This document shows positions 187 to 26,436 of a DNA stretch of 35,917 nt, piece after piece. How positions within the stretch are numbered: the stretch's first letter is position 1; every line of letters begins with the position of its first letter. The DNA is from a virus. Its lineage: Duplodnaviria > Caudoviricetes. Below the pieces are notes generated by a model. The model did no database searches. It was not told the DNA's origin and was given only the letters and a program-made list of their open reading frames with translations. The translations under genes were made by a program, and so were the position numbers. The DNA lies in IMG/VR virus record IMGVR_UViG_3300032224_000176, positions 1 to 35,917 of that record; one strand, written 5' to 3'.

Positions 187-1263
187 ATGGCAGAAATCAA
201 TTTCGGTAAATCAATTACCCTCAAGCAAGCGGCTAACCTTATCCGCACAAACCCAACAACTCGGTTCTTGTTACAAGGCGAGCCCGGGATTGGGAAGTCT
301 TCCCTACTAGAGAATATTGCCGACTCCCTCGGCTATGAGTATGCGTACATAGACGTACCCAACATGGACTTGGGCGACATAGCAATGCCTGTGATCGACC
401 ACGACACCAAGACCACACGCTATTATCCCAATGCACGATTCAAGATTCACGAGAAGAAACCATTGGTCATCATGCTCGACGAGTTCACGAAGGGTGCAGA
501 CCCCGTGAAGAATATGCTTCACCCCATGCTTGAGAAGGCAAACCCACGACTCGGTGACATACCACTAAACGAACCAAACAATCCACCGACTATCGTGTTT
601 TTGACTGGTAATCTAACGACCGATGGCGTGGGCGACTCCCTCAAAGCACATAGCCGTAACCGACTGGTTCCGGTGACGATTGCCAAACCCGATGCCGAGC
701 AGTGGATTGAGTGGGCTATTGGTAAGGGACTCGAACCCGAGGTAATTGCATGGGTGAATCGTTTTCCTCACGTATTGGCAAGCTATACCGATGCGGCACA
801 GGGCGACAACCCATACATCTACAACCCACGTAAAGCTCAGCATGCTTTCGTATCCCCACGCTCATTGGAGACAGCGAGCAATATCGTACGGACTCGCAAG
901 GACAACGACCCTGATTCGGTGATTGCCGCATTGACTGGTGCGATTGGTGAATCGGGTGCGCGTGATATGCAAGCGTACATTGAGTTCTCAGATCAACTGC
1001 CCACATGGGAGGCGACTATCAAAGAGCCAAAGACTACGACAGTACCTACAAGTCCGGGTGCATGCGCCATTGTGGTGTTCGGTGCTATCGCTCGGATTAC
1101 GAAGGAAACCATTAGCCCATTCATGGAGTATCTGTCTCGATTCGATGCCGAATGGCAAGCCGTGTTCGCTATCAACATTGCCAAGAACCCCGCTAAACAA
1201 TCCATCGCTTTCTCAAGCAGTGCGTTCAAGGACTGGGTTGTTAAGAACCAAGACCTACTCTGA
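187..1263 (+). CDS. MoxR-like AAA+ ATPase
   Basis: Walker A GEPGIGKS, Walker B VIMLDEF, sensor LTGN, SRNRL arginine-finger region, SPRS sensor-2; VWA gene just downstream. Confidence 0.85.
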   Translation: MAEINFGKSITLKQAANLIRTNPTTRFLLQGEPGIGKSSLLENIADSLGYEYAYIDVPNMDLGDIAMPVIDHDTKTTRYYPNARFKIHEKKPLVIMLDEFTKGADPVKNMLHPMLEKANPRLGDIPLNEPNNPPTIVFLTGNLTTDGVGDSLKAHSRNRLVPVTIAKPDAEQWIEWAIGKGLEPEVIAWVNRFPHVLASYTDAAQGDNPYIYNPRKAQHAFVSPRSLETASNIVRTRKDNDPDSVIAALTGAIGESGARDMQAYIEFSDQLPTWEATIKEPKTTTVPTSPGACAIVVFGAIARITKETISPFMEYLSRFDAEWQAVFAINIAKNPAKQSIAFSSSAFKDWVVKNQDLL

Positions 1264-1476: not shown

Positions 1477-1486
1477 CAAATGTTAG
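1473..1486. repeat. 14-bp palindromic site, copy 3
   Basis: GTAACAAATGTTAG, contains the TAA of ORF 1276 and the ATG of ORF 1480. Confidence 0.8.
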
Positions 1487-2685
1487 AAGAAAGAAAAGTT
1501 CAGAAAGCTAAGATCACATTGATGCGTGACCCGAGGTTTGCCCTTTGGTCTGGTATCTTGATGGTTGGTCGTACGAGTGTAGTGGACAACATTCCAACTG
1601 CATGCACCAACGGCAGAGACGAGAAGTATGGTCGCAAGTTTGTGACTATGCTCAAAGAGCCTGAGTTGAATTTCGTGGTACTCCATGAGAATCTGCACAA
1701 GGCATTTCGTCACATGACCACATGGAAGAAACTCCATGACGAGAACCATTCGCTGGCTAATGCCGCCTGTGACTACGTGATTAACCTCAAGCTCAAAGAC
1801 CTCGACCCAAGCGAGCGAACTATTGCCATGCCCAAATGGGCTGATGGTGAACTCAAGGGTAAACCCATGGGTTTGGTGGATGAGCGTTTTCGTGGCATGA
1901 ACGCCAAGCAAGTGTTCGACCTACTCAAAGATGAGCAAAAGGATGATGGCAGCGGAAAAGGCGAAGGCGGTGAAGGCTTTGACGACCACGATTGGGATGG
2001 TGCAAAGGATATGACCGAGGAGGAGAAGAAGGTTCTCGAGCGTGAGATAGATCAGGCTATTCGCCAAGGTGTAATGGCGCACCAAAAAATAGCGGGAACT
2101 GGCGCAGGAGAGCTAGACCGAGACTTACTCGACTTACTTGAGCCAAAGGTTGACTGGCGTGAGATGTTGCGTGAGTTCGTGAAATCCACATGCCATGCAA
2201 AAGATACGTCATCGTGGCGTAGGGTGAATCGTAGGTTCTTGTCTGCGGGTACGTACATGCCTAGCCTCATCGGTGAGAAGGTTGGTCACTTGGTTGTGGC
2301 TGTGGATACGTCAGGTTCGGTTGGGCAAGAAGAGCTGTCAGGCTTTCTAACAGAAGTTAGGGGTATCGCAGAAGAAGTTAAGCCGAGCCAAGTGGACTTA
2401 ATCTATTGGGATAGCCACGTAGCCGCACACGAGGAATACACGGAGGGCATGGTGGGTGACATCATCAACTCTACTAAACCTAAAGGTGGCGGAGGTACAT
2501 CTCCATCATGTGTATCAGCGTATCTGAAAGAAAAGCAAATCAAACCCGAGTGCATCATCGTATTGACCGATGGGTACGTGGGTAACGATTGGGGTAGTGA
2601 CTGGACTGCGCCTGTACTGTGGGCGATTGTAGGTGGGAACGATTGTGTTGCCGACAACGGCAAAACGATTCATGTTAAAGATTAA
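1480..2685 (+). CDS. putative metallopeptidase + VWA domain protein (DUF2201-like)
   Basis: N-terminal HExxH (LHENLHKAFRH) with NAACDYVIN; C-terminal MIDAS motif VAVDTSGS, GGGGT, IVLTDG. Confidence 0.85.
   Translation: MLEERKVQKAKITLMRDPRFALWSGILMVGRTSVVDNIPTACTNGRDEKYGRKFVTMLKEPELNFVVLHENLHKAFRHMTTWKKLHDENHSLANAACDYVINLKLKDLDPSERTIAMPKWADGELKGKPMGLVDERFRGMNAKQVFDLLKDEQKDDGSGKGEGGEGFDDHDWDGAKDMTEEEKKVLEREIDQAIRQGVMAHQKIAGTGAGELDRDLLDLLEPKVDWREMLREFVKSTCHAKDTSSWRRVNRRFLSAGTYMPSLIGEKVGHLVVAVDTSGSVGQEELSGFLTEVRGIAEEVKPSQVDLIYWDSHVAAHEEYTEGMVGDIINSTKPKGGGGTSPSCVSAYLKEKQIKPECIIVLTDGYVGNDWGSDWTAPVLWAIVGGNDCVADNGKTIHVKD
2347..2360. repeat. 14-bp palindromic site, copy 4 (intragenic)
   Basis: CTAACAGAAGTTAG, read in frame as LTEVR. 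Confidence 0.75.
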
Positions 2686-9677: not shown

Positions 9678-10094
9678 ATGCGCCCAATCTACGAAACAAA
9701 TCAAGACAAAATGCGTGAGAGGGAAGTCCACGCCTATCTAATGGATACTTTAGATTGCGATTTTGTACAAACCGACACGCTTGAAAACATTGATGGATTC
9801 ATTTGCTATAAGGATGGTAAACCTGCGGCGGCAGTTGAAATCAAAACTCGGAAGAACGCAAGTGACAAGTACCCCACGTACATGCTTAGTGCAAACAAAT
9901 GGCGCAACGGCTTAACCATAGCAGAAGAATACAAAATACCATTTGTCTTAATAGTTAGGTTTACTGATGGCATATTTGCCGTAAGTTTGGGAAAATCGTA
10001 CAAGCCAAGCCAAGGTGGAAGATATGACCGAGGCGACGCTAAAGATATTGAAGAGTGCATCTACATACCCATGGAAAAGTTCCACAAAATTTAG
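9678..10094 (+). CDS. putative PD-(D/E)XK endonuclease
   Basis: IDG...AVEIKTR catalytic pattern; ATG 9678 preferred over track start 9657. Confidence 0.6.
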   Translation: MRPIYETNQDKMREREVHAYLMDTLDCDFVQTDTLENIDGFICYKDGKPAAAVEIKTRKNASDKYPTYMLSANKWRNGLTIAEEYKIPFVLIVRFTDGIFAVSLGKSYKPSQGGRYDRGDAKDIEECIYIPMEKFHKI

Positions 10095-10102
10095 GAGTCA
10101 AC

Positions 10103-10417
10103 ATGCCCTACGTTAACAAACCCCGCCCTTATAAAAAAGAATATGAACAGCAGATTGCAAGAGGAGAAGCCGATGAACGGCTTGAACGACAACGCGCACG
10201 TGAGTCAATTGACAAGAAGAGTGCCGACCGGAACAAAGACGGACGTGCTGACGTCCGCGAAGGCAAAGATGTTGCTCATATCAAGGCACTATCTAAAGGT
10301 GGCTCCAATAAAGATGGAGTCAAACTTCAAGCCCCATCAGCAAATCGTTCTTTCAAGCGCGGCTCAAACCATAAGGTCGTATCCGAAGTAAGCGCCAAAG
10401 AACGTAAAAGAAAATGA
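10103..10417 (+). CDS. HNH-like endonuclease
   Basis: GKDVAHIKALSKGGSN...SANRS; AGGAG RBS before ATG 10103. Confidence 0.7.
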   Translation: MPYVNKPRPYKKEYEQQIARGEADERLERQRARESIDKKSADRNKDGRADVREGKDVAHIKALSKGGSNKDGVKLQAPSANRSFKRGSNHKVVSEVSAKERKRK

Positions 10418-16545: not shown

Positions 16546-16628
16546 CGTTGGCTATGCAGTTGCCGACTGTTGAGTTTTGAATTTCCAAATTTCTCCTTTT
16601 ACCCCCGGCTAATCACCGGGGGTTTTTT
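16546..16628 (+). ncRNA. candidate sRNA with anti-Shine-Dalgarno tract
   Basis: 5' hairpin GTTGGC...GCCGAC, pyrimidine tract TTTCTCCTTTT, then an intrinsic terminator. Confidence 0.4.
16601..16628 (+). terminator. rho-independent terminator at the convergence point
   Basis: ACCCCCGG-CTAATCA-CCGGGGGT followed by a T-run; overlaps the stop codon of the giant - strand gene. Confidence 0.85.
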
Positions 16629-19600
16629 ATTTCGCCATACCTTTCAAATCAATCCTGCCTTTTTCCTCTGCTTCCGTTGCGGCTTGACGTGATGGTCGTA
16701 GCGCTTTAATAAACACGGGTACGTTCTTTTCAGTCAGCGTGATCCCACGATAAGACTCACCACGTTGCTCTGCACGTTTCTCAATAGAGTCGGTAATATC
16801 ATCAGCCTCCAGCGCATAACTTGGGTATTGGCGATTGAACTTACTAACCTGCTTACTTAAAGTTTTACTAAAGTCCTTGAAGTCTTTGTTGCGGAACTCA
16901 CGATCAAGTCGGTTCAGTAGTTGCGTGCGCTCATTCAAAATCTTTTGTTCAAGGCCGATTACTTTAAAAGTCACGTACTGCGTATTTGCTAGTTGGTCCG
17001 AACGGAAGCCGACTGCTTGAAAAATCAACTGACCTGTTGAAAATGCATCCCTAGACAGTATCTGCGCGCCCTTATTATCTTTTGCCCCTTCCTTCCATAG
17101 GTCGTAAGAAGTCTTGAAGTTACGGAATCCTGCAGGTAGCGCACGGCTAACACCTTTATCGTAGTCACCCTGTTGGAACGCTTCAAATGCCTCAAACCAA
17201 GACAAGATCATATTTGCAGAGGGGCCAGCTTTCTCTAACGCCAAAGCCATCGCGCCTTCTCTAACAGTCTTAGACTCTTTAGTGTCCCGTAGCCATATGT
17301 TATTAAGACTTGTACGGCCCGCAATATCTAAACCCGTCACAGCATTAGCTATACCACGATCAACAATATCAGACAACTTCTTGCCACCTATGCGTGTACC
17401 GCCAAGTTGCTCTTCCAACCAAACAGTACGGAACCATAATTCAAAACTAATGTTTTTAAGGTCTTTAGGCCAGTCATCATCACCGCGCATTTTTTCCCAC
17501 GCCGCGCCAATCAAGCCCATGATAGTGCTAAACATAGGTAGACCCGATGCACCAGCAAGAACAAACGTAGTACCCAAAGTTCCAAAAAACTTTTTGATCG
17601 CCTCTTCACGTGTTTTGCCCGCCATAGGCTTAATCATTTCCATGAAGTTTCTAAGCAAATACAAAGTCACATGCAACGGGTACATCATGAACTGAGTCAA
17701 GACTTTGCCAACGGCATTCTTCATAAACAGTGGTCGGTTGTATTGACCATAGTTACCCAGAGCTTCGTTAGTATCCATAACTGCTTGGTCCACTGCCGCA
17801 TTGTGTGCTTCAGCGGGAGTCATGCTACCTTTAGCCATCATTTCACGGTTCAAACGGTACGAAGCCAAGAACATCATCTCGCGTGAAATGCGCTCAGTGG
17901 AATGCATCAAACCACCCAACACAAGTACGTCAACTGTCTCTTTGCCAAACGATACAATTGGGCCGCTTCGTTTATCGGTCGGCGTAGCTTTGTAATCAAA
18001 AATTGAACTTGCGTATGTAGATGTAGCTACATCACGAGACAACATATCACGGATGGCCCTGCGCTCATCTGGAGTCATATCTTTTGCGTACTCTACAGAA
18101 GGGGCAACCCAAGACTTACTGCCGTCAGGATTATTTTTGTACACACCAAACTGACCCCACATCTTAATCATGCGGCCCATTTCACGGGAAGCGCCAATAG
18201 AACCATACTTCCATAGCACCGGCATACCGGTCTGAAACAAGCTTAAGGGTTGCAACAAAGCTGAAGATGCGCCACCTAAATACCAAATGAATGATGCTTT
18301 ATTAAGTGCCCCGGCAATTTTTTTACCCGCATCATCTTTAATATACCCAAGCTCATCGGTAACCCTGCGTTCCATTTCTGCAACAAATGGTGTATACCGT
18401 GGGCGGTTCTCAATAGAATCTCGCGCCGCCGACAACGAAGTGCGAAGCAATGGTGCGTATTTAATACGAGCAAGCTGAGTAGCCATCTTAGTTGTGGTGT
18501 GAGCCACGTTGCGCAACAAGTCAGGACGGAAACCTGTAACACCCTTACGATGAATAAACTGTTTGCGGAAACTTTGGTCAGGCATTGCTTGCAAGTAAAC
18601 TTGATACACCGCATCTTTCAGCTTGTCTTTAGAGTCGGCATCACCCAAGTTAGAGCTATCAATTACATCGAAAATTTCACGCAGTAGCGCGGAACTGTCT
18701 GAAGAAATACGACGCAACGAACTGATGTCGTTGTCATATGTAAACTCTTTGTCAGTCAATAACTCTTCAAGGTTTTCGGCACGGCGTTTTTGGAACGCAC
18801 CCCAAGACTCACCGGGTTTTTGTTTAACACGCTCGTCGGCAAAGGCTTGCATTGCATTGTCGCGCTCAGCCATACTTTCGAACATAAAAAATTTACGTGT
18901 CTTCCCTTTGCCAATAGCCAACCAATAGTCACCCTCACGAACAAGCGGGAAGTATGGACTGATCTTGCCACCCTGCTCATAAATCGACCTGATCTTCTTC
19001 ATCAAATTGGCCTTTTGAGCAATCGACATATTGGATGTTGTAATCTGGTCATCCAACAGTTTGGTGAAGTAAGCCGACAACCTTTCAAAGTGCTGTTTGA
19101 TCTGCACAAATAAACGTTGGCCTTCAACACCCAAGTCGGCGTACTGTTTGTCAAGGCTAGCGCTACGTTCATCTGCTGATGGGTTAGAGGGGTCAACCTC
19201 TGCTAACGTAGACTCAAACGCAATCTGGTCTAATTTGGCACGCAAGGTTTTATCTGCACGGAACGCACGATCAATACTGTCAACCAACTCACCGGAAGAC
19301 TTGAGGAACTGAAGCGTCATGCCGTTCATTTTTTGTAGCAGCACGTTTGTGTGTACTAGTTCGGGCACCGCATTAGCGGCCCACTGTGTCAAGAAGTCTG
19401 TAGTAGGTAGACGCACTAACGCATTACGTTGATAGTAATTTAGGCGGTTCCATAAAGCACGGAGCGCGGGGATAACTTGTTTGGGGTCCTGCGCCATCTG
19501 GAGCAACGACACACCTTTAGCAAACTTGTCACCTTTAACCGACTCACTAAACTGCTCGCCAACTTCGGCGACTTTTTTGTCAACTTCTTTTTGACTCCTT

Positions 19601-22600
19601 AGCGAGCCTCTGACTGCTTCAGTTTCGTTATCATCTCCGCTGTCGTCGATGACTTCTCCAGTATCTTCAGTGCCTTCGCCAGTGATTGCTGATAGGCTGG
19701 ATCGCCCTTCTCCTGTTTGGCTAATGCTTCCCATTGACTTAGGAGCACTTTCATCTGAGATTTCTTCGGCGCTAGCGTCTTTGAAGCGGTTTCCACGAGG
19801 TTTGAGATTTCCACTTTTGAACTCCTTTTCTAAGTATCTAAATATGTCGATGTTGGCTGCAATGTGGTCTGTCAGAGCTTTCTGCACCTGACGCATGTCA
19901 AAGCCGGGGAAGACTTCCAACAATACCATAATCTTCTGCATTTCAGAAGGGAACTCAGCTCCATGGTTGCGCACCTTAAAGTGAGCTAGCTCATGAATCA
20001 TTGTGCCTATCATAGAAAGTGCGATCTCTTGCGGCGTTCCAGATAAGTTGGTAACAGATGGGTTAATGAACATGCCTTTAAACGGCAACATTACGTTGAC
20101 ACCGTAATACTGGTTGTCAATACTAGTACCGATTACTTGCGTAGCTAGATCACCGTATTCACCACGTCCGGCGGCAATCAAAGCATTGCGCAGATACAGG
20201 AATGTTTGGCCAACACCAGCCAAATACTTATCGTAAGCAACACCAAATTTGTTTCTCGCAGCATCAGATAGCGACATGTCAGGGGGCAGCTCACCGGCCT
20301 CCTGCATTTTTTTAGCCAGACCCTCCATTTGTTCGTCGGCATACTCTACCTGATCGTTAAAAGCAACGTATTCATTTTTGCTATTAACTGTTACCTGCCA
20401 ACCTAATTTAGTTAATAGCTTTCTTAGCTTGCTTGGGTCAGTTGGGGTGGTAACGCTAATTGTGTTGTCATGAATCATGACCCGATCAGGGTCAAGTTCG
20501 TTCTGCGGAATAGTCAATTCGTCGATACGCACTGACACATTCTTCAAGTCATCGTTTGTAAGCTCTGGAATCTGGCGGTTGTTGACATACAGCACGCCAT
20601 CTTTAACCTCAACTTTGTCGCCGGGTTTGATAAGCGTAAACGCAGTGTCTGTTAGTGGGGTTTTAGGTTCAAGAATTTCTTTAGCCGACAGTGTTCCATC
20701 AGGATTAACATACTGCACATCACCAAAGTTTCTGATACCCGCAGCCAAGTCTAACTGGCTATAGATCGCAGTTATGTAGTTTGCAATTTTGTTAAAGTCT
20801 GCCTGTGCCACCTTGGAGAAACCTTGACGGTTTAACTCAAATGGGTAGCCAGCATCTTCAGGTTTGACACGCGGGTCTGGGGAAACATCAATAAAGAAGT
20901 TTCGTTTAATTTCTTCACCTTCCCAACCCGGCCTATCTTTAAGCGCTACATCAAACTGCCACAACCCATTTGAAAGAACATGCGCGTTCTTACGGGGGTA
21001 GTACTTTTGATCCATCTTGTTTTTGGATACATATATACGAGCAACGCCCCATGCAAAGCGCACATTAGCAAAAGACGTGTATTCATTCGCTGGGAAGTTG
21101 GAACCAATTGGTAATGTATTATTACCATAGCCGTCGTTAAACGTAACTTCAATATCGTCAAACAAAGGGCTTTCTGTAAGTACAGGGGCAGTTTCTAAAT
21201 AGTACGTTTGGAAAGAAATGTCTTTTACGTCACCTGTTGATTCGTCTACGTATGTTTCTGGAATCTGCACAGTTACAGCCGTGCCGTGCCCATCTGGGAA
21301 TAGTTCATTTGTGTACTTTTCTACAACATCGGGGTCAGTTGTAGTTGTAATAGTCGGCCCACGATCTGGGTCATCAAGAGCGGCTTTCAAATCATCGCCC
21401 GTTGTAACCATGCGAGAAACAACACCATCGCGCAGTGATACAACTTCCAACTGCTTGTTCTCAAACAAAAACAACATCTTGGCTACGCCGAGGCCGCCTG
21501 AAGCGCGTGTAGTACCTTTGACTGTACCAGCAATCTGCAAGAACTGATTACCCATCACGCTAGTCGGCATGCCGGGGCCGTTGTCAATAATTTTAATCGT
21601 ACGTTTACTTGAGTCTATAGATACATTAATCTTGCCTTTGGTAAGCTGACCTTTTTCAATTGCTTCTTTAATAGCATCGAATGAATTTTGGAACAGCTCT
21701 TTGATTGAGACTTTTGCAATATCGTCAGGTGTGCCGTACAGTTTGTTGCCGAGCATCTTAGCCAAGCGTTGCACGTTGGCGCTTGGCTTAGCTTTGATTT
21801 CCTGATCGCCCTTTTTACCAAACCCAAAGATCGAGCTACTTGCTGATTCTTCGGGGAGTACAGCTTGCGATATGTTCCCACTACCAATTAAATACGTACC
21901 TTGGTTGTACACAGATTTAACTTGGGTGTTTGAAAATGCAACAATTTCGCTAAGCTCGCCGTCACGACCGTACTGCATGATGCCGTCGTAACCTTGGGCC
22001 ATGGCGCGGGTCATCACTTGCTTACCAATGTAGCCCTTTTCCTCGTATGCTTTTTCTACAATGCTTTCGGCTTTACTTTCGGCAACACCAAGACGCACTA
22101 AAGCTTCAACCATTGGGTCTCTTATTAACCCATTTATGATTAGCGGGTTCTTAATTGACACATAAGCGGGGATAATGTTTGCCCCAGCAAGATTTTTTGG
22201 TGCGTATTGATTAGCGTACTCTGTGGATGGGGTTAGGTATATGCCAGCACCAAGAGCGCCTTCAGGGGACATCTTAAATGTAATTATGTTTTTGGTAGTG
22301 CCGTGGTAAACAACTAATGGATTACCCTCTTTGTCCACAACTTTACTGTCACCAAACCAATTTCTAAAGGCATCTGTAATTGTGCTGACCACCTCACCAC
22401 TAAGTCTAGCCCATGCAGGTGTACGTGAAGACAAGAGCTTGTCGGTAACGATAATCAAGTCGGTCATCGCGTTGGTATCATCATCGCTCATACCAAACAA
22501 ATCACGGAGGCCATTAACAAATCGGTTAAAGAATGGTGTGTCTTCCTCATACCCGTGCGCTTGTAACAGGAAGCCCTGCATTGCAGGGTCAGTCATGCCG

Positions 22601-25600
22601 TATGCAACGAACTCACGTGGGTCGTCAAAGATTTCACCATGAGACGCAAGCACGCTCATCTCTTTAGTCAACGTGCCGTTAGCCGACAACTCATTGAACA
22701 ACGTACCCGCACTGTTCATAGTGCGAATCAAATCTTGGGCAGCACGGACTACAGCCGAGTTGGTGTTAAGGCCCTTTTGAATCATTGCGTAAGCTAAAGC
22801 CAACTTGCGGTTTGTAGCCGCATGCAACAACTCATGCATAATCGTGGTGTTATTAACGCCTTGGTCTACACCAAACGAAGCACCGCGAACGTAGATTACT
22901 TTGTCGCCAGTCCTGTAGTTCTCAATGTACAGAGCGATTGAACGGTCCCACTGCTGAGCGTTCTTTGTTTTCTTCAGTTGTTCTGGAAGCTCATCACCTT
23001 TTTCAATCACAACAAACTTTACGCCGTTGACAAACCCACGAAGTCGCTTGCCTAACTTCTGTTGAAAAAGATCACCTGTCTTAATAATGTGAGACAAAGC
23101 TTGAACACCAGTCTTGAACTTACTGAATGTGCTGTCGGCTTTACCCTTAGCAATAGTCACTGCACTGGACGGGCCAGTTTTAGTTGCAGCCATGCCAGCT
23201 TGAATATCAGCCTTTTCTTTTGCAGTAATGCTTGGATGGTTAAGCGCCTCTTTAATCCTTGTGCTTACTGCTGTACCACGAAGGTTAGGAGACTGTTGTA
23301 ATTTAAACAACTCTTTAATTAGTTCGCGCTTTTCGTCGCGGCGTTTTTGCTCAGCTTCTTTAACCTCATCATCGTTTGCATAGATGGATTCGTCCATCGG
23401 CTGAGCCAGCTTGTTCAACGCCTTGGTAATGCGTGTGACTGCATCGTCGGCGCGCTTTTTCTCAGCTTGAACGGGTTTATTACCCTCGCGTTTTTGTTTA
23501 CGTTCTTCTTCGGTTAAAACGGCAGGGCGGCCGACTGGCTTACCTGTAGCTCTTGAGGCTCTTGGTTTCTTTTGTCCTTGCGTTTTTGCTTGCTTGGTTT
23601 CAGTGGTTTGAGTGCCAACTCCGGCTCCTGTGGTTTGAATCGAGGTAATAGCGTTGCCAACGTGCGTGTTTGCTGTGCCGTCTGGCTCATATCGTTTTTC
23701 AACTGGGTGCAGTCCAACTTGTGGTTGTGTATTAGCTTTGTACACGCCAACAATTTGATTATCTTTTTTGTTGACAACAATAACAGTTGGTTGTGCGCCT
23801 TCAGGTATTTCTGAAACGTTCTGAATTGGCGTGAATTTAAAATCTTGAATGTATCCAAGGCGCACAGAGTTACCACCCATGCCCCCTTGCATATCGCTCA
23901 AAATTTCGTTATTGTCACCGGGGCTTACATATAGCGCCGTATGGGGGGCGTAAGTTGTACCTTGCCCAGCACCTTCAGATTTTTTGGTACGTGAAGTTTT
24001 ACCTTCAGAGTCAACTGTGTACTCACTACCTTTAGCTGTCGTAAAACTTACTATTCCCCCTGTGGTTATATCTTCGCCAAAACGACGTTTATATTCCCAA
24101 GATGCGGCGCTAGCAATGTCTGCTCGGTCGTTATTTTTTCCGTAGTTATAAGATTCGATGAGCCCCTCTTTAGAAACATAAAGGGGGTTTATAATATTTG
24201 TGATTGCCTTAACAAGCGGGTTGTCTACACCTACTCTACCTTGGTCTTCTTCCGCTTTTCTAAGTTCACCACCTTCTACTGTCAATCTGCGATACACAGA
24301 CCGGTGTAGGGCGTTTTCAATTTCATCGTCTACTGCAGTGGACTGTGTTGTTTCTCCAGACGTAGCTGCTGTAGTAGTCTGTCCAGTAGATACCACTCCG
24401 CTTGTGTCAATGTTTCCAACTCCTGTGGTGGTGGGCACTGTACTGGGCTGTCTAGCCACTCTAGTGCTTTTTCGACTTGTTTTACCGATAGGTTGTCCAG
24501 CATTTTTTTTCTCCTCCCTAGCTTGCTTAGCAGCAAGTTTGGCTTCTTTTTCCTGTTCTTTAAAAAGCGCATCGGCTTCGGCTTCTTCTCTAGCTTGTTG
24601 GAATGCTTTTAATATAGCTCGTTGTGGGTCTTCACCTGCGGCAATAAGGTCTTGGGCAATTTGACTTACTCTATCTGAAGGTACTTGAGTAGCCAGACGT
24701 TTGGATTGCTCTGCGTTCTTTTTCTCCTGTTCAACAACTTCGGCTTCAGCCATCTGACGCGCATCTTCATCAGGAACACCGGTTGCAGCAATTTCAGCCG
24801 TGCGTTTATTAACTTCTCGCTCACGTTCTTCAGCAGTGGTAACCTTTTCCGGGTTGAACTCATCTAAGGGAGTAAAAGTAAATTGCCGTTCATCACCGGG
24901 CCGAGTAGTTCCAACGTCACCAAGGTCTCCTTGTCCTTGCTCCTGACGCTGCTGTCTTTGTTGTTTGGCCAAAAATCCTTTGGACTGCGCAAGCAGTTGA
25001 GAGATACCTTCGTAGCTTTCATCCCGTTGGTAGGCGCCTTCGCGTGGACCCGTGAATGCTTCAAGTTTTTGGCGAGTCTCAGGGGACACCATTGGACTAA
25101 TTGCTTGCGCCCCGTACTGTGCTGTTTTTGTGGCTGCTATCGTACCGCCAGCTGTTGCTCCAGCTTGAAGGATTGTTTGGCGTAGGGTTTCTTCCAACTG
25201 CTGGTACAGACCTAAAAGGCTTGGGTTTTTATTTATGCCGATTCCGGGAAGGATGTCAATTCCATATTGAGTCAGCGTAGTTGCCATCTCAGGGGGGATC
25301 TCGTGCATTAAAGCTTTTGCCATATACTCGGGTATACCGCGCACGCCATTCTTAGCGATATAACCTTTTAGCCCAGCCAACGCCTTAGTCATACCGAAGC
25401 GTTCAAAGATTACCTCGGCAGCAGCCATTGGTATTGCACGTGCTGTAGCAGCCTCACCAGATAAACCAGCGGCACGGCCTTCACTATAGGAATCACCAAA
25501 TTGTTGGATTGCGGCTTGCGCCAAGACAGGGGCGGCGGTACCAGTAAAAGCACTCAAAGCAAGAAAAGGCGCTTGAGTTCCCAAGCTTGTCATCGCACCT

Positions 25601-26436
25601 TGCGCGGAACGCTCAAAAATAGATTTGCCTTCGGGAATAGCTTTGCCCCGTGCGTCTTCAATACGCCGAGCGCTTATCAAGTCTTTACTAAATTGATCGT
25701 CACCAGTCAGGTCAGCGTAAGCGCTAAGTAAGCCAAGACCAGCTTTTGTGTATTCTGAAGTAACACCAGAACCAACACGCTTCCAAAATCCCGCATCTTC
25801 CAATTCTTCCGCACGTTTTGCAGCTTCAGCCGCAGCTTGTTCACCAACAACATCGCGGTTTAATTGTTGGAAATCTGGCTTGATACGCCCTTGTAGAGCT
25901 TGTAGTTTTGCTTGACCCTCGGCAATTTCAGGGCGTAGACCTTGGTCAATAAATCGTTGGGTCTGGACTTCTAAGCGTGGATCAGTGTATTCTCTAGCCT
26001 TCTTGGACTGGACTTTGTCTAGGGCCTCATATCGCCCAGCAATTGCACGAGCTGCACGACCATATACGTCAGAACGCTCAACTAACTTAGCTAACGCGGC
26101 TTGGCGTTGCTCTGGTGGTACAGCATTTAATTGAGCTTGGACAGCGTCGACAAACTCAGGACGGATAACATATTTGTCTTCGGTAGGTAGGGGGGCGGGC
26201 ATCTCCTGCCCTTGTAATACGCTTTGTTTTTTAGGCGTGGGTTTGCCCAAAGCAATCTGATCTAAACCAGTTCCCTCTATAGAACCAAAGTCGTAGTCGC
26301 CTTCAAGGTTAGGTTTGACTTTGGGCTTAGCTTTAAGTTCAGGCTTTTCCAGCGGGGTGAAAGTTAAACCTTCTGCTTCGTTCCCCCCGTCTGGTTTTGC
26401 TTCATTGTCTGTTTCAGAAAGGGGTACGAATTTCAT
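16627..26436 (-). CDS. giant polyvalent (putative ejected/internal virion) protein: zincin + ART-like + GHKL ATPase + zincin + PLxRFG-like
   Basis: MHELLH; FRNWFGDSKVVD...VYHGT...GIYLT...GYDG...EIVAF; KELFQNSFDA...DNGPGM...GGLGVAK; IHELAH; YFPLVREG; terminal position after pilot-like genes. Confidence 0.8.
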   Translation of the reverse strand: MKFVPLSETDNEAKPDGGNEAEGLTFTPLEKPELKAKPKVKPNLEGDYDFGSIEGTGLDQIALGKPTPKKQSVLQGQEMPAPLPTEDKYVIRPEFVDAVQAQLNAVPPEQRQAALAKLVERSDVYGRAARAIAGRYEALDKVQSKKAREYTDPRLEVQTQRFIDQGLRPEIAEGQAKLQALQGRIKPDFQQLNRDVVGEQAAAEAAKRAEELEDAGFWKRVGSGVTSEYTKAGLGLLSAYADLTGDDQFSKDLISARRIEDARGKAIPEGKSIFERSAQGAMTSLGTQAPFLALSAFTGTAAPVLAQAAIQQFGDSYSEGRAAGLSGEAATARAIPMAAAEVIFERFGMTKALAGLKGYIAKNGVRGIPEYMAKALMHEIPPEMATTLTQYGIDILPGIGINKNPSLLGLYQQLEETLRQTILQAGATAGGTIAATKTAQYGAQAISPMVSPETRQKLEAFTGPREGAYQRDESYEGISQLLAQSKGFLAKQQRQQRQEQGQGDLGDVGTTRPGDERQFTFTPLDEFNPEKVTTAEEREREVNKRTAEIAATGVPDEDARQMAEAEVVEQEKKNAEQSKRLATQVPSDRVSQIAQDLIAAGEDPQRAILKAFQQAREEAEADALFKEQEKEAKLAAKQAREEKKNAGQPIGKTSRKSTRVARQPSTVPTTTGVGNIDTSGVVSTGQTTTAATSGETTQSTAVDDEIENALHRSVYRRLTVEGGELRKAEEDQGRVGVDNPLVKAITNIINPLYVSKEGLIESYNYGKNNDRADIASAASWEYKRRFGEDITTGGIVSFTTAKGSEYTVDSEGKTSRTKKSEGAGQGTTYAPHTALYVSPGDNNEILSDMQGGMGGNSVRLGYIQDFKFTPIQNVSEIPEGAQPTVIVVNKKDNQIVGVYKANTQPQVGLHPVEKRYEPDGTANTHVGNAITSIQTTGAGVGTQTTETKQAKTQGQKKPRASRATGKPVGRPAVLTEEERKQKREGNKPVQAEKKRADDAVTRITKALNKLAQPMDESIYANDDEVKEAEQKRRDEKRELIKELFKLQQSPNLRGTAVSTRIKEALNHPSITAKEKADIQAGMAATKTGPSSAVTIAKGKADSTFSKFKTGVQALSHIIKTGDLFQQKLGKRLRGFVNGVKFVVIEKGDELPEQLKKTKNAQQWDRSIALYIENYRTGDKVIYVRGASFGVDQGVNNTTIMHELLHAATNRKLALAYAMIQKGLNTNSAVVRAAQDLIRTMNSAGTLFNELSANGTLTKEMSVLASHGEIFDDPREFVAYGMTDPAMQGFLLQAHGYEEDTPFFNRFVNGLRDLFGMSDDDTNAMTDLIIVTDKLLSSRTPAWARLSGEVVSTITDAFRNWFGDSKVVDKEGNPLVVYHGTTKNIITFKMSPEGALGAGIYLTPSTEYANQYAPKNLAGANIIPAYVSIKNPLIINGLIRDPMVEALVRLGVAESKAESIVEKAYEEKGYIGKQVMTRAMAQGYDGIMQYGRDGELSEIVAFSNTQVKSVYNQGTYLIGSGNISQAVLPEESASSSIFGFGKKGDQEIKAKPSANVQRLAKMLGNKLYGTPDDIAKVSIKELFQNSFDAIKEAIEKGQLTKGKINVSIDSSKRTIKIIDNGPGMPTSVMGNQFLQIAGTVKGTTRASGGLGVAKMLFLFENKQLEVVSLRDGVVSRMVTTGDDLKAALDDPDRGPTITTTTDPDVVEKYTNELFPDGHGTAVTVQIPETYVDESTGDVKDISFQTYYLETAPVLTESPLFDDIEVTFNDGYGNNTLPIGSNFPANEYTSFANVRFAWGVARIYVSKNKMDQKYYPRKNAHVLSNGLWQFDVALKDRPGWEGEEIKRNFFIDVSPDPRVKPEDAGYPFELNRQGFSKVAQADFNKIANYITAIYSQLDLAAGIRNFGDVQYVNPDGTLSAKEILEPKTPLTDTAFTLIKPGDKVEVKDGVLYVNNRQIPELTNDDLKNVSVRIDELTIPQNELDPDRVMIHDNTISVTTPTDPSKLRKLLTKLGWQVTVNSKNEYVAFNDQVEYADEQMEGLAKKMQEAGELPPDMSLSDAARNKFGVAYDKYLAGVGQTFLYLRNALIAAGRGEYGDLATQVIGTSIDNQYYGVNVMLPFKGMFINPSVTNLSGTPQEIALSMIGTMIHELAHFKVRNHGAEFPSEMQKIMVLLEVFPGFDMRQVQKALTDHIAANIDIFRYLEKEFKSGNLKPRGNRFKDASAEEISDESAPKSMGSISQTGEGRSSLSAITGEGTEDTGEVIDDSGDDNETEAVRGSLRSQKEVDKKVAEVGEQFSESVKGDKFAKGVSLLQMAQDPKQVIPALRALWNRLNYYQRNALVRLPTTDFLTQWAANAVPELVHTNVLLQKMNGMTLQFLKSSGELVDSIDRAFRADKTLRAKLDQIAFESTLAEVDPSNPSADERSASLDKQYADLGVEGQRLFVQIKQHFERLSAYFTKLLDDQITTSNMSIAQKANLMKKIRSIYEQGGKISPYFPLVREGDYWLAIGKGKTRKFFMFESMAERDNAMQAFADERVKQKPGESWGAFQKRRAENLEELLTDKEFTYDNDISSLRRISSDSSALLREIFDVIDSSNLGDADSKDKLKDAVYQVYLQAMPDQSFRKQFIHRKGVTGFRPDLLRNVAHTTTKMATQLARIKYAPLLRTSLSAARDSIENRPRYTPFVAEMERRVTDELGYIKDDAGKKIAGALNKASFIWYLGGASSALLQPLSLFQTGMPVLWKYGSIGASREMGRMIKMWGQFGVYKNNPDGSKSWVAPSVEYAKDMTPDERRAIRDMLSRDVATSTYASSIFDYKATPTDKRSGPIVSFGKETVDVLVLGGLMHSTERISREMMFLASYRLNREMMAKGSMTPAEAHNAAVDQAVMDTNEALGNYGQYNRPLFMKNAVGKVLTQFMMYPLHVTLYLLRNFMEMIKPMAGKTREEAIKKFFGTLGTTFVLAGASGLPMFSTIMGLIGAAWEKMRGDDDWPKDLKNISFELWFRTVWLEEQLGGTRIGGKKLSDIVDRGIANAVTGLDIAGRTSLNNIWLRDTKESKTVREGAMALALEKAGPSANMILSWFEAFEAFQQGDYDKGVSRALPAGFRNFKTSYDLWKEGAKDNKGAQILSRDAFSTGQLIFQAVGFRSDQLANTQYVTFKVIGLEQKILNERTQLLNRLDREFRNKDFKDFSKTLSKQVSKFNRQYPSYALEADDITDSIEKRAEQRGESYRGITLTEKNVPVFIKALRPSRQAATEAEEKGRIDLKGMAK
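19599..19814 (-). CDS. candidate nested (+1 frame) small protein, 71 aa
   Basis: AAGGAG 7 nt before GTG; helical-looking LLSQWEALAKQEKGDPAYQQSLAKALKILEK; host frame is a low-complexity linker. Confidence 0.35.
   Translation of the reverse strand: MEISNLVETASKTLAPKKSQMKVLLSQWEALAKQEKGDPAYQQSLAKALKILEKSSTTAEMITKLKQSEAR
24330..24503 (-). CDS. candidate nested (+1 frame) small protein, 57 aa
   Basis: GGGAGGAG 7 nt before ATG; MLDNLSVKQVEKALEWLDSPVQCPPPQELETLTQAEWYLLDRLLQQLRLEKQHSPLQ; host frame is a T/S/G-rich linker. Confidence 0.55.
   Translation of the reverse strand: MLDNLSVKQVEKALEWLDSPVQCPPPQELETLTQAEWYLLDRLLQQLRLEKQHSPLQ

Follow-up and report, generated by a model that had tools for sequence, protein, structure and literature searches.

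This locus poses a two-part question: is a 57-codon reading frame that lies wholly inside the gene for a giant phage protein itself a gene, and, if so, what would its product do? The window, the whole 35,917-nucleotide stretch of viral DNA that we analysed, carries this frame on its minus strand. A sequence-only reading had described a ribosome-binding site (RBS), an A run and an ATG that open the frame in the +1 phase of the giant gene. We found this arrangement between positions 24518 and 24330, and the three peptide stretches singled out in that reading all occur in the 57-residue ORF.

The nested frame and its giant host gene

The features on which the argument rests all lie on the minus strand of the window:

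16627..26436, minus strand: giant host gene, 3269 aa, PLxRFG/DarB-like polyvalent protein (NF032893, E 1.9e-102)
16726..18957, minus strand: C-terminal PLxRFG (tail-700) domain, residues 2494-3237 (NF032893)
21481..21705, minus strand: HATPase-like stretch, residues 1578-1652, sporadic cargo (under the Pfam cut-off)
21901..22335, minus strand: ART-PolyVal domain, residues 1368-1512, sporadic cargo (PF18760, E 1e-25)
22387..23181, minus strand: zinc-peptidase-like (HExxH) region, residues about 1086-1350 (HExxH motifs)
24330..24503, minus strand: nested gene of 57 aa, read in frame +1 relative to the giant gene (ORF list, model with pLDDT 78.5, family match)
24330..24344, minus strand: C-terminal S-P-L-Q-stop, family pattern S-x-[LVIM]-[HQ]-stop, putatively Lon-degron-like
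24503..24510, minus strand: A8 spacer whose last A is the A of the ATG; lineage-specific, without a conserved slippery role
24511..24518, minus strand: Shine-Dalgarno site GGGAGGAG, GGAG-type, kept at about -10 to -7

The nested ORF starts with the ATG at 24503, comprises 57 codons and a TAG stop (24332-24330), and overlaps a T/S/G-rich stretch of the host protein, residues about 645-701. A public contig, possibly from the same source DNA, covers 24200-24700 with 0 differences and 0 gaps and so gives no obvious sign that the A run arose by misassembly. The nested gene is also overlapped by an antisense open frame about 155 codons long (24200-24664, plus strand, in the window; 9840-10310, minus strand, in locus L001); antisense frames are closed in many relatives, and this one is probably a shadow.

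The giant scores 343.9 bits against NF032893 (cut-off 100), and its gene ends a minus-strand run, other members of which encode a virion structural protein and a product that weakly matches a DNA ejection protein (E 0.0037); judging by these matches, the giant is likely an injected virion protein. Other genes of the window encode a family-A DNA polymerase, an SNF2 helicase, a primase, a holin and an M15 peptidase. The closest cultured polymerases, 32-38% alike, belong to Rhizobium phage RHph_TM3_14A and Pseudomonas phages KPP25 and Rollin, relatives that point to a proteobacterial host. Near-identical pieces occur in one freshwater metagenome run (X4), with no RNA data set among the holders listed. 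An AAA ATPase gene (187-1263, plus strand) adjoins a DUF2201 metallopeptidase/vWA gene (1480-2685, plus strand), together a pair of the MoxR-vWA type; RHph_TM3_14A has similarly annotated ATPase and metallopeptidase genes in the same order.

Around the fixed nested gene, related giants exchange cargo domains and C-terminal modules, the latter being LPD38 in L175, L213 and L307 and LPD39 in others. By eye, the N-termini and flanks of the giants have no common motif. The N-terminal part of the window's giant contains repeats of an F-x-P-L/I motif (residues 1-30 and about 530-545; about 26436-26340 and 24850-24790, minus strand), other giants have different short N-terminal repeats, and such repeats could be capsid-targeting or processing signals. 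The peptidase motif (HExxH or HExxxH) is of divergent form in 19 giants. In eleven (L171, L172, L175, L197, L205, L218, L224, L227, L245, L257 and L283) an HExxxH motif is followed by a conserved G-L, and the four of these that were scanned gave no Pfam match for this domain.

Constraint, distribution and initiation

We compared the two frames over the same bases in 108 distinct DNAs, leaving out 3 of 162 loci with indels. Mean identity was 0.66 in the nested frame and 0.44 in the host frame, with the nested value higher in 5777 of 5778 pairs. A frame-specific test of selection used the last 31 codons of 64 close, non-overlapping pairs (378 differences; 231 distinct sequences) and gave pN/pS values of 0.15 for the nested frame and 2.97 for the host frame. 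The nested frame is thus under purifying selection, in line with the earlier suggestion that the main frame is here a permissive linker and the alternative frame carries the constraint; the host-frame value is a by-product of the overlap, not positive selection. Differences in the overlap fell 229, 106 and 43 times at host codon positions 1, 2 and 3, compared with 524, 278 and 2052 times in a control, the giant's C-terminal part (22 pairs). That the ORF might be a by-product of host-frame composition, and no gene, would agree with the lack of a family or fold match for its peptide, but the shift in codon position and the near-universal excess of nested-frame identity reduce this reading to a negligible probability.

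The same disparity holds over longer distances. Across 149 giants, mean identity was 54% for the peptide and 30% for the last 600 residues of the giant, and the peptide was still 49% identical where those 600 residues were less than 25% alike; the two sets of distances correlate (rho 0.39). Conservation so far above that of the giant fits a conserved partner outside the giant.

Database searches returned 14 close proteins and, with E no higher than 0.001, 135 cluster representatives, among which a few are probably chance or chimeric. The family profile matched 311 of 319 sequences (310 loci and the window, a redundant set with 214 distinct peptides), and in every one of the 311 the peptide lay inside a long same-strand ORF, in its +1 frame, none being stand-alone. 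Of the eight sequences that the profile did not match, five are annotated phage regions and three are actinobacterial loci put down to chance. The complete host proteins (187 distinct) range from 1618 to 3269 aa, and the nested stop falls at host residue 319-1002. In the converse direction, 79 loci were chosen by the giant C-terminus, with four giants that carry the nested gene as query and with many contigs duplicating earlier ones; all 55 loci complete at the 5' end (46 distinct giants) had the nested gene, as did 6 truncated loci. The other 18 loci lacked it; all are truncated and, by alignment, start no earlier than the nested region, which is least certain for L404.

Beyond these loci, the peptide had 0 matches in 50,697 GenBank phage records, and species genomes gave only three 15-residue actinobacterial matches, judged to be chance, so no prophage and no host were found. 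The nested gene had no match in 13 annotated records, of which 16 CDS for giant or ejection proteins were compared, and was not found in Rollin, RHph_TM3_14A or two stretches of KPP25, with a best score of 13.4 bits at a place outside the giant. A stand-alone ancestor was sought through five subgroup scans and a single-protein scan, none of which gave one, most of the 135 representatives having no known context. Titles and opening abstract lines from searches of the open literature, subscription papers being outside this scope, gave no description of the nested gene. In four database proteins (P0115, P0045, P0095 and P0102) a portion of the nested peptide is fused to different sequence; P0115, on a single 1238-nt contig, consists of giant-like sequence and the second half of the peptide, and each of the four is an assembly error or a rare fusion. 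In L065, L066, L071, L072, L076 and L080 the usual Met1 is missing and the start apparently lies about 10-12 codons further upstream.

An RBS-led start was present in 230 of 235 distinct members (219 ATG, 10 GTG, 1 TTG), compared with 423 of 4153 (10.2%) random +1-frame windows of equal size from the same giants; the RBS is therefore conserved along with the +1 ORF that it precedes. We detected no sigma-70 promoter in 23900-25200, and the RNA fold around the RBS showed nothing unusual (z 0.41). As no promoter-like site was found close by, we infer that the nested gene is read from the giant's own late mRNA by internal initiation. The sequence-only reading had also raised a +1 slip on the A run, which would link the giant's first ~645 residues with the peptide in a short isoform. 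The window does have the A8 run, and P0115 combines giant-like sequence with the peptide's second half, but just 2 of 230 members have an upstream A/T run of at least 7, and 11 of the 230 have an XXXYYYZ heptamer. In 14 members the nested frame has a stop at most one codon from the start, and in 39 at most five codons, so that any upstream slip there would terminate. With the RBS and start codon kept in 230 of 235 members as well, the slippage proposal did not hold up, and we regard it as very improbable. Taken on its sequence conservation, the nested overprinted gene is near certain to be real.

The nested protein, its C-terminal tail and candidate roles

AlphaFold2, run with 112 sequences, predicted three helices (7-18, 27-30 and 34-53; pLDDT 78.5, pTM 0.54). 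The window's copy is acidic (pI 4.6; median of the members 4.5), and the family alignments show no conserved Cys, hydrophobic leader or visible signal peptide. Conserved Trp37 is lost in L170, L171, L172, L173 and L175. Pfam, PHROGs and NCBIfam held nothing over the cut-off for the peptide: P0001 and 7 relatives had no PHROG match at E 0.01, and phrog_5825 (function unknown) weakly matched 17 of 112 members, with a best E of 0.022. A link to PF10109, a tail-assembly chaperone family, was not borne out; the best score of 23.3 bits, below 25, came from 1 of 112 members, hhalign gave 0.1% on a shallow template, and there is no conserved slippery site. Structure searches were similarly unrevealing, with 0 Foldseek matches to the PDB for the peptide model, no BFVD match at E 0.001, no usable ESM Atlas match for two members, and a best VIA-align hit (Z 5.0, rmsd 3.2, 55 aligned) to generic helical folds. 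A PDB sequence search produced no family (best E 0.13).

The C-terminus is far more distinctive. The last residue is His in 124 and Gln in 90 of the 214 distinct peptides, the window's copy ending in Gln, and the residue before it is L, V, I or M in 213 (L 148, V 52, I 10). Ser occupies the fourth-last position in 146 of the 214, and the third-last is P in 125, R in 27, Q in 27 and L in 4, departing from the L/I of the degron class described below. By comparison, an [LVIM][HQ] end was found in 92 of 4758 other alternative-frame stretches of these giants, and an [LVI][HQ] end in 16 of 2182 other RBS-led ORFs in these phage loci. We consider this invariant hydrophobic-His/Gln ending the most telling feature of the family, and as a sequence pattern it points to the host Lon protease. 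In the available text of PMC11986505, Lon recognises x-L/I-L/I/V-H tails, hydrophobic-His C-termini are Lon degrons, and published Lon substrates also deviate at the third-last position. The Lon activator LarA binds a conserved pocket of the Lon N-domain through its terminal His and penultimate Val (available sections of PMC10665427 and PMC11882793).

The Lon hypothesis was set down ahead of complex modelling. Modelled together with residues 1-245 of E. coli Lon, a stand-in from which the phage's own host Lon may differ, the peptide scored 0.45 (best of 3 controls 0.00), a pass on a mark that 116 of 157 solved pairs and 2 of 215 mismatched pairs reached, though passes at or below 0.60 comprised only 18 solved pairs and both mismatches. 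Partner pLDDT was at least 82 and the runs agreed in all contacts, with no interface reported. The pass may reflect likeness to the solved LarA-Lon structure, and docking of the peptide on the Lon N-terminal domain is weakly predicted. Some contact of the peptide with Lon seems to us slightly favoured.

On this basis we propose a mechanism in which internal initiation on the late mRNA that also encodes the giant would yield the nested peptide, and the small helical product would bind host Lon through its hydrophobic-His/Gln tail. Once bound, it would tie up or dampen Lon, rather than activate it or merely be cleared, and would shield the 1600-3300-aa giant while the virion assembles. Such a Lon-binding decoy, probably shielding the giant during virion assembly, is a tentative reading that we put somewhat short of an even chance. 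Features of the tail count against it. A terminal Gln is weak for Yersinia Lon, with a half-life of 402 min compared with 152 min for His in the sole terminal-residue test (Table S1 of PMC11986505), yet 90 of 214 members, including the window's copy, have Gln as their last residue; and most members have Pro, not L/I, in third-last place. Nor does the tail single out a decoy, since a degron would equally remove a chaperone or a peptidase inhibitor.

The main rival to the Lon decoy is that the peptide pairs with or inhibits the zinc-peptidase (HExxH) domain of the giant and silences this domain in the producing cell; its tail would enter the active site or act as a removal tag. The peptidase is the most widely shared domain found among the giants: of 187 distinct giants, 174 have HExxH and 11 have HExxxH (185 of 187; 1.4% each in shuffled controls), and 184 have such a motif downstream of the nested gene. 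What weakens this account is that L170 and L173 have neither motif and nonetheless keep an intact nested ORF and His tail, albeit with the conserved Trp lost, and that the domains are of divergent subtypes and lie 134 to 1318 residues from the nested gene, whereas the peptide is uniform. We judge it unlikely, though a serious contender.

Another possibility ties the peptide to the making of the giant rather than to one of its activities, as a folding or packaging helper of the P1 Ulx or tail-assembly chaperone kind whose tail serves as a Lon clearance timer. The strict cis linkage (311 of 311 and 55 of 55) agrees with such a helper, as does the single member of 112 that scores on Phage_TAC_7 (E 6.6e-5, 23.3 bits, cut-off 25), and P1 DarB requires helpers, Ulx being given as aiding DarB localisation in the available part of PMC9024508. 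Alignment by hhalign to a shallow P2 gpE alignment gave a probability of only 0.1%, however, and the giants offer a helper no common visible motif in their N-termini and flanks, some of their C-termini having LPD38 and others LPD39; the cultured PLxRFG giants examined, moreover, lack a match to the nested peptide. We consider a helper role distinctly unlikely. A degron tail would fit both the peptidase and the helper accounts, as it works as a removal tag. The earlier suggestion of an immunity peptide, taken here as one directed at the ADP-ribosyltransferase or HATPase cargo, can point to the presence of both domains in the window's giant, but among the 187 giants ART-PolyVal occurs in 6 and HATPase in 17, and all 187 keep the nested gene; the suggestion fails on these counts, and we deem such a role highly improbable.

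The Lon decoy remains our preferred reading, and its mechanism is a testable hypothesis that can be approached with purified Lon and without phage culture. Independently of function, this is an unusually clean nested gene: over 200 distinct peptides occupy the same architectural position within giant genes that diverge widely, the hidden frame is better conserved than the gene containing it, and standard annotation is expected to overlook it. If the Lon reading is true, the peptide is a further phage-encoded regulator of a protease central to the host, and it hints at a way for injected proteins of 200-350 kDa to last until packaging. The alternation of His and Gln also serves as a natural experiment on how Lon degron rules apply in other hosts. 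The boldest form of the idea, that widespread uncultured phages encode within a giant gene a degron-mimic Lon modulator that fills the N-domain pocket when the protease-sensitive giant is made, is plausible but doubtful; it would mean a new phage anti-protease family in which gene overlap hard-wires protector to client.

Comparison with known systems

In phage lambda, Rz1 is embedded in the +1 frame of Rz. This spanin gene within Rz (available text of PMC5295617 and PMC6139136) and the gene studied here are both small phage genes fully inside another gene, in a shifted frame, on the same strand and with a start of their own. Unlike Rz1, the nested product is acidic and helical, without a conserved Cys or visible signal peptide, and its host gene is not that of an i-spanin but of a 1600-3300-aa PLxRFG polyvalent protein, no lysis gene. 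Nested phage genes as such are known, as Rz1 illustrates; what appears new from our sequence comparisons is a family without a match in the libraries searched or the cultured giants examined.

LarA of Caulobacter, as described in the available portions of PMC10665427 and PMC11882793, resembles the peptide in being small, with a helix and a short free tail that has a hydrophobic-His end, and the peptide is likewise predicted, weakly, to dock on the Lon N-domain. The peptide, which may or may not activate Lon as LarA does, differs in being phage-encoded and nested, in ending in Gln in 90 of 214 members and in having no Pfam or NCBIfam match.

Lambda CIII is a competitive inhibitor of FtsH. A precedent for Lon itself is T4 PinA, a phage Lon inhibitor according to the available text of PMC9697503. 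In its proposed role only, the peptide is like PinA and CIII in being a small protein by which a phage would protect its own proteins from an ATP-dependent host protease; it differs in being encoded by a nested late-operon gene, not a free-standing one, and inhibition is here proposed. As far as searches of Pfam, PHROG, NCBIfam and PDB sequences show, the peptide has no match that would place it in the LarA or PinA family.

By its C-terminal domain, the giant belongs with the PLxRFG/DarB-like proteins (NF032893) of F116, PBC5, POI1126, LASTA and Skulduggery; the cultured PLxRFG giants examined, unlike those described here, are without the nested gene. P1 Ulx (available part of PMC9024508) and the PF10109 tail-assembly chaperones offer a further likeness, that of a small helper tied to a very large virion protein. 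Their genes are separate, whereas here the small gene is nested within the large one.
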